Positions 22,295-24,979 of a stretch of DNA of 64,000 nucleotides are shown here, piece by piece (position 1 is the stretch's first letter; each line of letters opens with the position of its first letter). Under the pieces are notes generated by a model. That model searched no databases and had not been told where the DNA came from. It saw nothing but the letters and a program-made list of their open reading frames with translations. The DNA lies in the NCBI GenBank assembly GCA_963711565.1, contig CAVQEQ010000003.1, forward strand, positions 672,001 to 736,000, written 5' to 3'. Made by a program: the position numbers and the translations under genes. Source of the DNA: an uncultured delta proteobacterium. GTDB taxonomy: Bacteria; Desulfobacterota; Binatia; Binatales; Binataceae.

Positions 22295-23179
22295 TCAGTT
22301 GTGCGTATAGGTCATCGAGAATCCGACGTTCACGGTATTCGTTGGCACGAGAGTCGGATCGGCGTACGCGATTACAGTTGCATATGCGCCGGCGGGAACG
22401 CCCGTGTTGCTCCCAGTGGCACTGCATTGCACCGCCGAGTCGGCAATCGAGCACAGGCTGGCGCAGCTGAGCAGACTCAAATCGGGATTGAAGACGCATA
22501 TCTCGAAATCATAGGCTCCGCCCAATCCCGGGTTGGAACTGATCAGTGCCTGAAAATGTCCCAACACGCCGCCCGCGTTGCCAAAAAGGCCGCCAAGCAG
22601 CGGCGTCAACGCAATGTTCAGAGGTTTTGCCGGTGGTGGCGAGAGGGGAGTAGCAGCGGCAAATGATACGCCTCCGAATGGCATATAAAGCCCGTTGGTG
22701 GGGAGCGTGTTGAGGGGGGTCAACTGAGCGACTTGAAATTCGGCAACCTTTGAGCCCTGTGTGCCTCCCGTAAGCATCACCGCGTTAACGGTATTGAGTC
22801 CGTTGATACCAGAAGCCCCCGCCACGCCCATTGATCCCGGGGCCCCCGTCGGTCCGACTGGGCCGCGAATTCCCTGCGGTCCCTGTGGCCCTGTCACTCC
22901 CCCCAAACCTACAGTTCCGACATCGCCATTTGGACCTTGCGGTCCCTGCGGCCCGGTCGGTCCTGTCGGTCCCGTAGCTCCTGCCGGTCCGATATTCACC
23001 CAAGTCAGCGAGGTCTGATCCGGCTCGCAGGCCGTGTTAATGCCCTTTATGAGACCCTTTTTGGTGACGCAAATCGAGGTCGTCTGCGCGCGCGCGCCTG
23101 ACGGGAAGACGAGCGCAATGATTGCACTCGCCGCCATCGCTCCCAGCCATATCAGTGCCTTGCTCTTACAATAACTCAT
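22295..23179 (-). CDS. Secreted collagen-like protein (paralog 3): 22 Gly-X-Y triplets plus Cys-containing C-terminal domain
   Basis: GGAGG RBS, signal peptide ending ARA-Q, uninterrupted GXY run. Confidence 0.85.
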
Positions 23180-23259
23180 GCCCAAGGTCCTCCTGCGGTT
23201 GCGCCTCGGGTTTGCGAACTGCACGTCGAGTCGATCGCCTTGAGCATCCATCGCTGCCC

Positions 23260-24078
23260 TCACTGCATGGCCAGATTGAGCGACCAGGTGACCTGCGCCA
23301 AACCGTCCCCCGATGTATCTGTAGTGGAGGTTTGTATCGTCACTCTGTCACCCTGGTTGATCTGAATGACGTCCTCTATGTCCTCGCAGGCAAAATCGCC
23401 CGCTGCAATTGTGCATGTCACGGGCGTGCCACCTGCGGGGCAAACGTCGTTGACACACACGTCAAAAGTGTCGGTCTGACCCGCAGGCGGCGGGTTATCG
23501 ACAAGGATTGCCAGGTTCGTGAGCGATCCGGCGGGCAGGGGGGTACTTTCCGAAGCGAGTGAATTTGTATCCGAGACAGAGCATGAATTGCTGGGGCCCA
23601 GATAGCCGTTAAAGAACGGCATCACACACCAGGCCCCCGTTATGTACGTGGCATAACTGCTTCCGGTAAGCGTAGCGAGATTGTCGCCTGTGGTGCCGAC
23701 GGTGCCTGGAGTCCCAGGCGTGCCCGAGGCGCCGACCGGGCCTTGCGGACCTTGACGGCCCTGCAACCCTGTCGGTCCGGTCATACCAATCGCACCTTGG
23801 GGACCTTGCGGACCCAGCGGACCCTGCGCACCCGTCGGACCTTGCACACCCTGCACTCCGATCGGGCCGGAGGGTCCGGTCGGTCCCTGGATGTTCCATG
23901 TCAGGTTGACCTCCAGGAATTTGCAGGGAACGTTGATGCCGGAGATTTTTCCCTTCCGGCTCACGCAAATCTCGATTGGTTGTGACTGGGCGCTTACCCT
24001 CGAGGCCATCGCCATCGAGGTCGCGGCAGCGAAAATCGCAAGGAGCACCGGCCGCGATTGCCTAATCAATGCGAGCAT
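23260..24078 (-). CDS. Secreted collagen-like protein (paralog 2): 23 Gly-X-Y triplets
   Basis: GGAGGGG RBS before ATG 24078, signal peptide ending VSA-Q, GXY run, GDRV motif near the C-terminus. Confidence 0.85.
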
Positions 24079-24145
24079 CGTGGTCCCCTCCCGTTCGTTA
24101 GGCATTCGAATTGATCCTTCAGAGCCTTCGCCAGTTCCTCGTCGA

Positions 24146-24979
24146 TCACGGGCTCGACTGGGTAACGGTGTGTTCGAGCGAGTAGGTAACGTCGGTAGAA
24201 TTCGTGCCGGTGGTGGCACGCCCGACGATGGCGACCCGGTCGCCGTCATTCACGCTCACGTTGTCGATTGTGTCGTTGCAACTGGTGGTCGGATCGTTGA
24301 TGGTGCATGTCAGCGGCGTTGAGCAGTTTTCATTCACGCAGAGAACGAACACGTAAGAGCCCGTGGTGTCGCTGGGGCTGCCGGGATTCATGTCGGTTTG
24401 GACCAGCAACTCGCTGAGCGTTCCCGCCGACACCGGCACTTCGACGTTGGCGAGCGTGGTATCGGCGCCATTGCCGGGACCCATGTACAAGGTCTTGTTC
24501 CCGGGACTGCCCATGCCGCCAAGCACCAGGTTGAAAGCGAACCCCACGTCCTCGCCCGACGTTCCTCCAGCGATTATCTGAGTGTTAGTCCCATTGAGGC
24601 CGGCAGCTCCCAAAGCGCCCGTCGGACCCTGAACTCCCATCGGTCCCTGTACGCCAGTCAGACCCTGCGGTCCCTGCGAGCCGGCAGGTCCGACAAAACC
24701 TTGCGCTCCCGCCGGTCCGGTCGGTCCGATACTTCCCACGGCACCGATAGGTCCCTGCAATCCAATGGGGCCGGTCGGGCCCTGGACTCCAGCAGCATTC
24801 CAGGTGAGCGTCACCTGCGGCTTGGTGCAGGCGATGTCGATGCCTTTGATTCTGCCTTGCCGATTGACGCAGAGGGTGATGGTTTGGCCGGAGCTTGACG
24901 GTACGACAGCCGCGAGCATCGCGATACCTGCCGCGGCCGAAAGAGCAACCCGCAGTCCACGGCGTACTAAAGACTGCAT
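24146..24979 (-). CDS. Secreted collagen-like protein (paralog 1): 23 Gly-X-Y triplets
   Basis: GGAGGGG RBS, signal peptide, GXY run, GDRV motif. Confidence 0.85.

Follow-up and report, generated by a model that had tools for sequence, protein, structure and literature searches.

The window, a 64,000-nucleotide stretch of DNA, carries three co-oriented genes on its minus strand, here called A, B and C (Table 1). They are separated by 67 nt (A–B) and 80 nt (B–C), and each has its own ribosome site; in some databases the start of B is placed 9 codons further upstream. The open reading frames confirm that the three are paralogs built on one plan, as a sequence-only reading had described: a hydrophobic N-terminus leads into a short N-cap with two Cys that ends in LTW, followed by three residues, a collagen stalk, three further residues, the motif IAG (A) or LTG (B and C) and a beta-rich head. 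The signal peptides assigned by that reading stand as hydrophobic segments resembling a Sec signal, on the basis of hydropathy (KD19 1.6–2.15) and inspection. After residue 35 no second strong hydrophobic segment was found in any window chain (maximum KD19 1.0–1.5), so that anchoring, if any, would need a partner. All three proteins score above the cut-off for the collagen family PF01391, and their stalks are Thr-rich and uncharged, with 0–2 charged residues.

Table 1 Positions of the three collagen-like genes and their parts in the window
Feature	Position	Strand	Description
Chain A gene	24146..24979	−	277 aa; signal-like segment, two-Cys N-cap, stalk, head
Chain A collagen stalk	24584..24790	−	23 Gly-X-Y
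Chain A head	24149..24583	−	predicted TNF/C1q-like beta-sandwich; without Pfam family
Chain B gene	23260..24078	−	272 aa counted from ATG; ribosome site GGAGGG
Chain B collagen stalk	23680..23886	−	23 Gly-X-Y, the last being GDN
Chain B head	23263..23679	−	
Chain C gene	22295..23179	−	294 aa
Chain C collagen stalk	22784..22990	−	22 Gly-X-Y plus non-Gly triplet TVN
Chain C head	22298..22783	−	

Each of the three chains spans 78 residues from the N-cap Trp to the head Gly, while in-register X/Y identity is only 14–24% and head identity between chains 26–36%, which bears out the earlier observation that strongly diverged chains carry no stalk indel. The equality of the stalk spans thus holds, but the earlier count of 22 triplets plus an xxN triplet does not, since GTN and GDN also fit Gly-X-Y, unlike TVN; the strict runs are 23, 23 and 22. 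The GDRV strand reported for two heads is present in A and B. Four aligned head Cys had also been reported; three align in all chains (C214, C225 and C234 in A numbering), the fourth occupies a shifted position in C, and two additional Cys are present in B.

The trio is flanked on one side by a convergent lptFG pair, which points to a diderm host, and upstream by a choice-of-anchor-Q gene. The latter (window:25182-27116, minus strand), co-oriented and 202 nt upstream of A, encodes a secreted choice-of-anchor-Q/Chlamydia PMP-repeat protein with paralogs on contigs C1 and C3, and it is not a conserved neighbour of other trios. No accessory gene in the same orientation is conserved next to the trios; a 751-aa gene lies directly downstream in six loci only (as at L001:11057-13312) and encodes an unannotated protein that looks secreted and has CxxCH-like motifs. 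We found no sigma-70-like promoter at the window trio (0 vs 1.6 expected) and likewise no clear internal terminator. Contigs of three soil metatranscriptomes map to the trio, those of X12 and X18 to each of its genes and those of X19 to B only, and such contigs are sparser over a 20-kb control than over the trio, in a comparison where the runs had been selected by this stretch, the thresholds were 90 vs 97% and the contigs carry no strand or co-transcription information. Soil metagenomes contain near-identical DNA.

Relatives were sought with the head alignment in a genus set of 47 genomes, a family draw of 151 and a phylum draw of 300 others. The genus set gave matches in 35 genomes and none in the remaining 12 sampled, the family draw in 32 of 151 genomes (5 of 30 genera), and the phylum draw, besides the window genome (G000), in 1 of 300, as a single-gene relative. 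Loci were then taken from each of the 35 genus genomes with a match and, in the family draw, from the 10 matching genomes that belong to other genera. Trios occur in 32 of the 35 genus genomes (three being cut by contig ends) and a single gene in the other three; in the family, three genera bear trios. The order A-B-C is fixed and orthologs are position-specific. Most trios share a syntenic site, and the window trio is a second, non-syntenic copy; the site common to most relatives is occupied in the window genome by another trio on contig C2 (L001:7785-10882, G000:C2:147784-150881), with 30/28/29 triplets in A/B/C, spans of 99/107/99 residues and a Cys-containing neck loop in its B chain. A scan of the genome contigs with chain A as query found no relative, and one locus examined in G086 contains no collagen ORF. 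G101 carries two complete tandem trios (L060:2-6120), with spans of 69/69/69 and 141/141/141.

Single-gene relatives with the same head were found in G006, G015, G024, G032 and G038, and their stalks vary freely (spans of 204 and 392 residues; runs of 56 and 168 triplets). G046 has two adjacent long-stalk genes of 168 and at least 97 triplets, the second split by a contig break (L078:1-3553, L079:5406-6710), and no third gene was seen at this locus; the leader of its second gene product is charged and His-rich, and the Cys cap is missing there. Since such single-gene and two-gene relatives exist, this head type can presumably work outside a trio. The sequence-only reading had named one- or two-gene loci or unmatched stalks, together with chains that form stable homotrimers only, as evidence against its proposal. 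On the loci the proposal withstands this test: they are overwhelmingly three-gene, in fixed order and with lengths that co-vary, the single-gene and two-gene relatives being the exceptions.

Whether stalk lengths co-vary within loci across genomes, a question raised by the same reading, was addressed with the Trp-to-head-Gly span in the 36 complete trios among 44 trio-type loci (six of the others are cut by contig ends, G176 has no N-cap, and in G101a an anchor was missed); three anchors had to be placed manually, a placement later confirmed, and for four chains with a frameshift the span was taken from the DNA. They do co-vary. The span ranges from 78 to 267 residues, and A equals C exactly in 28 of the 36 trios and within 2 residues in all of them. 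B lies within 1 residue of A in 25 trios, is longer by 3 in four, and by 6, 8, 8, 8, 9, 13 and 29 in the other seven; all three spans are identical in 11. G101a, the 37th trio measured, has 69/69/69. The excess in B is a non-collagen neck loop or insert, and the summed triplets of the three chains stay within 2 of each other in six of these last seven trios (50/49/49, 37/36/35, 36/36/35, 36/36/35, 60/60/60 and 30/28/29); in the seventh, G174, A and B have 29/29, with C uncounted. The match is fine to one triplet, as in 96/97/96 vs 99/100/99. It recurs at 11 collapsed length classes, and between A and C it was reproduced by 0 of 100,000 shuffles, a significance that is overstated because the classes are related; nor are the related genomes independent of each other. 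The length match is not due to chance. A rule of 7-triplet steps (spans of 78, 99, 120–121, 141 and 162) was also considered and is not claimed, since steps of 8, 1 and 10 triplets are present as well.

Comparison of close relatives shows how the lengths change. The near-orthologs of the window trio, at metagenome loci L091–L093, have 30/30/29 triplets, and the heads of L092 are 84/90/88% identical to those of the window (A/B/C). Relative to L092, a single 63-nt block (7 triplets) is absent from each window chain, after triplet 8 in A (positions 5, 6, 9 and 10 fit within 1%) and after triplet 8–9 in both B and C, a co-location with a chance of ~0.03 under random placement. The corresponding values for three other indel events are 0.06, 0.02 and 0.16, and in two comparisons (G174 vs G132, and G178 vs G008) the indels are not co-located. 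In the expanded clade of G178, G008, G014 and G157, the spans of 147, 171, 171 and 267 residues correspond to 99 plus 2, 3, 3 and 7 units of 24 residues. An internal period of 8 or 16 triplets was present in 10 of the 11 chains or chain parts tested (p = 0.003), the exception being a short part. These repeat units are not common to the chains, and their best matches across chains are near background. Three separate mutations would be expected to pass through transient half-changed loci, and no intermediate locus with one chain alone changed was seen among the related loci, which counts against such a course.

The N-cap holds exactly two Cys in 112 of 115 chains and four in the other three. Because of this pairing, an intrachain disulfide appears likelier than interchain bundling in the manner of C1q. 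Disulfide bundling through the N-terminal Cys, as earlier suggested, is therefore doubtful; in G176 (L075:5241-7986), moreover, the two-Cys N-cap is deleted from all three chains, leaving 87/84/86 residues before the head, and the chains retain their chain-specific signal segments and matched stalks.

The three chains are old, distinct lineages, as judged from their trees. A quick maximum-likelihood tree of 131 heads groups them by gene position, with 7 label changes vs a mean of 65 after shuffling, and the tree of signal segment plus N-cap agrees (7 position changes vs 54 shuffled). The best match of each window head is the head in the same position of G113, whose trio has spans of 99/99/99, and window B and C pair with the B and C of G113 at SH-aLRT 96 and 100. 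X/Y identity is 0.22 between paralogs of one locus, 0.21 between paralogs of different loci and 0.56 between orthologs, and at the third codon positions of Gly the values are 0.28, 0.28 and 0.47. Gene conversion would make locus-mates alike, and from these identities it is not supported.

The necks are also chain-specific. All 41 B chains have an Asp-centred triplet (GDN in 26 of them), whereas 43 of the 44 C chains have a non-Gly one. A short helix interruption, possibly a kink, lies 11–12 triplets before the head in the C chains of L044, L045, L048, L066, L067, L068 and L077, whatever the total length. The heads evolve fast: identity among genus orthologs is 63–73%, vs ~90–96% for a neighbouring SDR, and for one C relative it is 95% over signal plus N-cap but 68% over the head, which fits an exposed recognition or adhesion tip. 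The C gene is duplicated in G150 (L061:5627-7908) and G005 (L069:5567-7246), with heads 65% and 77% identical, respectively, and both C spans of G150 are 141; these variants are possibly interchangeable C subunits.

The head family has no match in Pfam, PDB sequences, PHROGs or NCBIfam, where only the stalk matches. The C1q family and the BclA C-terminal domain family of Pfam gave no match in the three window proteins or in 33 heads, and the head profile gave none against PDB sequences at E ≤ 1. The AF2 model of the chain A head is a confident beta-sandwich (pLDDT 92.9). Comparison of this predicted model by Foldseek, which had been suggested with C1q, TNF and the BclA C-terminal domain in mind, is led by 4-1BBL (E 2.6e-4, TM 0.52), C1QL1/3 (E 8.8e-4 for C1QL1), ExsF, BC2L-C and cerebellin, with TM of ~0.4–0.5, and the C1q structures 5hzf/5hkj are among the fold matches. 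VIA gave Z 8.5 with 4-1BBL (rmsd 3.1 over 114 aligned residues), other jelly rolls being close behind (ExsF, Z 7.3; gC1q 5hzf and the F-BclA C-terminal domain, Z 6.9 each), with the warning that Z near 8 may reflect a common arrangement. The head is thus predicted to be a TNF/C1q-like jelly roll, on a moderate match.

A head profile search of 1.84 billion representatives returned 6,561 matches. Among the best 150 of these, 121 distant relatives carry three, six or nine non-identical head copies in one chain (three in 114, six in 6 and nine in 1), and the others two (5), four (1) or one (23); the ranking gives an advantage to proteins with several copies, though none to copy numbers divisible by three. 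Within one protein, the copies are ~35% identical, which is comparable to the A, B and C heads. The triple-head proteins (P0008-P0157) are unannotated, of ~400–440 aa and without collagen stalk, many have signal-like N-termini, and their nearest clusters in the ESM Atlas are unnamed and mostly viral or phage. The model of one of them, P0018, is compact (pLDDT 94, pTM 0.91), and HHalign relates it to the window heads at 99.4%. Its top Foldseek matches are engineered single-chain trimers of C1q, adiponectin and APRIL-BAFF (E 2e-9 to 5e-8). It does not superpose on single-chain C1q-type trimers as a whole (TM 0.22–0.25, rmsd ~21 Å), which could be due to a different order of the domains round the axis, and VIA gave a best Z of 5.3 for one domain only. 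The models support the view that three unlike heads would form one unit.

These results are best explained if A, B and C form an obligate ABC collagen heterotrimer, an assembly that we infer from sequence with a probability of about 0.84; the earlier suggestion that the length constraint reflects co-assembly of three chains is in this way supported by the length locking. The chains would be exported by Sec through their signal-like segments, and the three heads, with the chain-specific necks, would select one another and nucleate folding. The stalks would then zip 1:1:1 into one staggered triple helix, ~19 nm long in the window at the collagen rise of 2.8 Å per residue given in PMC12357932. 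At one end the helix would be capped by three unlike subunits that make up the predicted TNF/C1q-like head; at the other it would be closed by a small N-cap, with its disulfide formed within each chain. With both ends pinned, a chain that became longer or shorter by itself would no longer be in register at N-cap and head, so that an indel would have to be matched in the other two chains, and selection would fix the matching indels. The product is likely a surface or secreted adhesin or recognition fibre with an asymmetric, fast-evolving tip. We also consider probable a wider account, in which this is a natural, hydroxyproline-independent obligate heterotrimer in bacteria, convergent with C1q; its head family would alternate among a homotrimer from a single gene, a heterotrimer from three genes with a collagen stalk and a pseudo-trimer of three fused domains, heads and necks would serve as chain-selection and stagger modules, and length would change in lockstep via chain-specific indels.

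Separate homotrimers AAA, BBB and CCC could instead be kept at equal height by side-by-side bundling, or by the need to extend to one common layer, much as the stalks of BclA and F-Anchor are loosely coupled in Bacillus spores. Such loose length coupling between separate collagens is reported in PMC12357932, the prokaryotic collagens so far characterised are homotrimers (PMC8968730), AF3 is reported to give no heterotrimers of C. difficile BclA (PMC13188886), and solo genes with this head exist. This arrangement is improbable: the match is fine to a single triplet, indels fall at similar depth in the three chains, the copy number is three in fixed order with chain-specific necks, and distant relatives fuse exactly three non-identical heads.

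Equal length would also let any combination of chains fold (ABC, A2B, AAA and so on), yielding a library of tips and no one obligate ABC species. The two diverged C genes of G150 and G005, the two-gene locus of G046 and the fast evolution of the heads would all suit such mixing, which we nevertheless hold to be quite improbable: nearly all loci have one A, one B and one C lineage with position-specific necks, several have the C-specific interruption at 11–12 triplets from the head, and in the two cases with a fourth gene this is an extra C, which would fit an exchange of variants in a single slot. That equal length has no structural meaning and results from a recent triplication in tandem or from gene conversion among the GC-rich repeats, to which repetitive tandem paralogs are generally prone, is very improbable and was rejected, since the trees place heads and N-caps with their positional counterparts in other genera, stalks within a locus are no more alike than those of cross-locus paralogs, Gly third positions included, and the extra repeat blocks are not common to the chains.

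The obligate heterotrimer would have its closest counterpart in C1q, whose A, B and C chains come from three tandem paralogous genes and combine a collagen stalk with a C-terminal jelly-roll head; each chain has one interchain N-terminal Cys, and 18 chains form a bouquet of six stalks. The bacterial trio shares with it the three tandem paralogous genes for distinct chains of matched length, the short Cys-containing N-segment, the stalk N-terminal to a predicted TNF/C1q-type head and, in some loci, chain-specific stalk interruptions. In contrast to C1q, the bacterial heads have no sequence-recognisable gC1q domain, each N-cap has two Cys rather than one interchain Cys, and stalk length varies almost four-fold between species, in all three chains together. 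The trio gives no sign of an 18-chain bouquet, of hydroxylation or of protease partners. As the trio is bacterial, the resemblance is most likely convergent.

Bacillus BclA, F-BclA and ExsF and C. difficile BclA1-3 likewise have a Thr-rich collagen stalk of variable length and a C-terminal TNF-like head. The Bacillus and C. difficile BclA proteins are homotrimers with an exosporium leader and independent or loosely varying lengths, whereas the trio has signal-like N-termini, belongs to a diderm host and keeps its three genes locked in length at the level of the triplet. Streptococcal Scl1/Scl2 and Legionella Lcl share the Gly-X-Y stalk, but they are single-gene homotrimers, and the window chains have no LPXTG anchor and an uncharged stalk; the NCBIfam Scl/Lcl matches of chain A cover the stalk only, at ~37–41 bits vs cut-offs of 325–500. 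The single-chain triple-head proteins such as P0018 use the same head family, with three non-identical copies as one unit; unlike in the trio, the heads are fused in one polypeptide and there is no collagen stalk.

Among the matches listed by a literature search, mainly outside subscription journals, none describes a natural collagen heterotrimer from bacteria. If the bacterial ABC system is real, it overturns the generalisation that prokaryotic collagens are homotrimers, and it means that the design of C1q arose outside animals as well. It would also provide small head/neck modules, foldable in bacteria, for register-defined recombinant heterotrimers. With its natural length series (69–267 residues), the system allows direct tests of chain selection, of register control and of how compensatory indels evolve.

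Several further features were observed at individual trios. A GT2-like glycosyltransferase gene and apparent membrane glycosyl-/methyltransferase genes, recognised by eye, adjoin trios at L067:6416-9440, L063:8304-12928 and L060:6274-8537, and the Thr/Ser-rich stalks might be glycosylated. Single-chain frameshifts in stalk or head occur in L033, L034, L055, L074, L072 and L075, and are probably assembly errors. In the expanded-stalk clade, the C chains of L034, L037, L055 and L074 carry long C-terminal tails rich in Thr, Ala and Pro.
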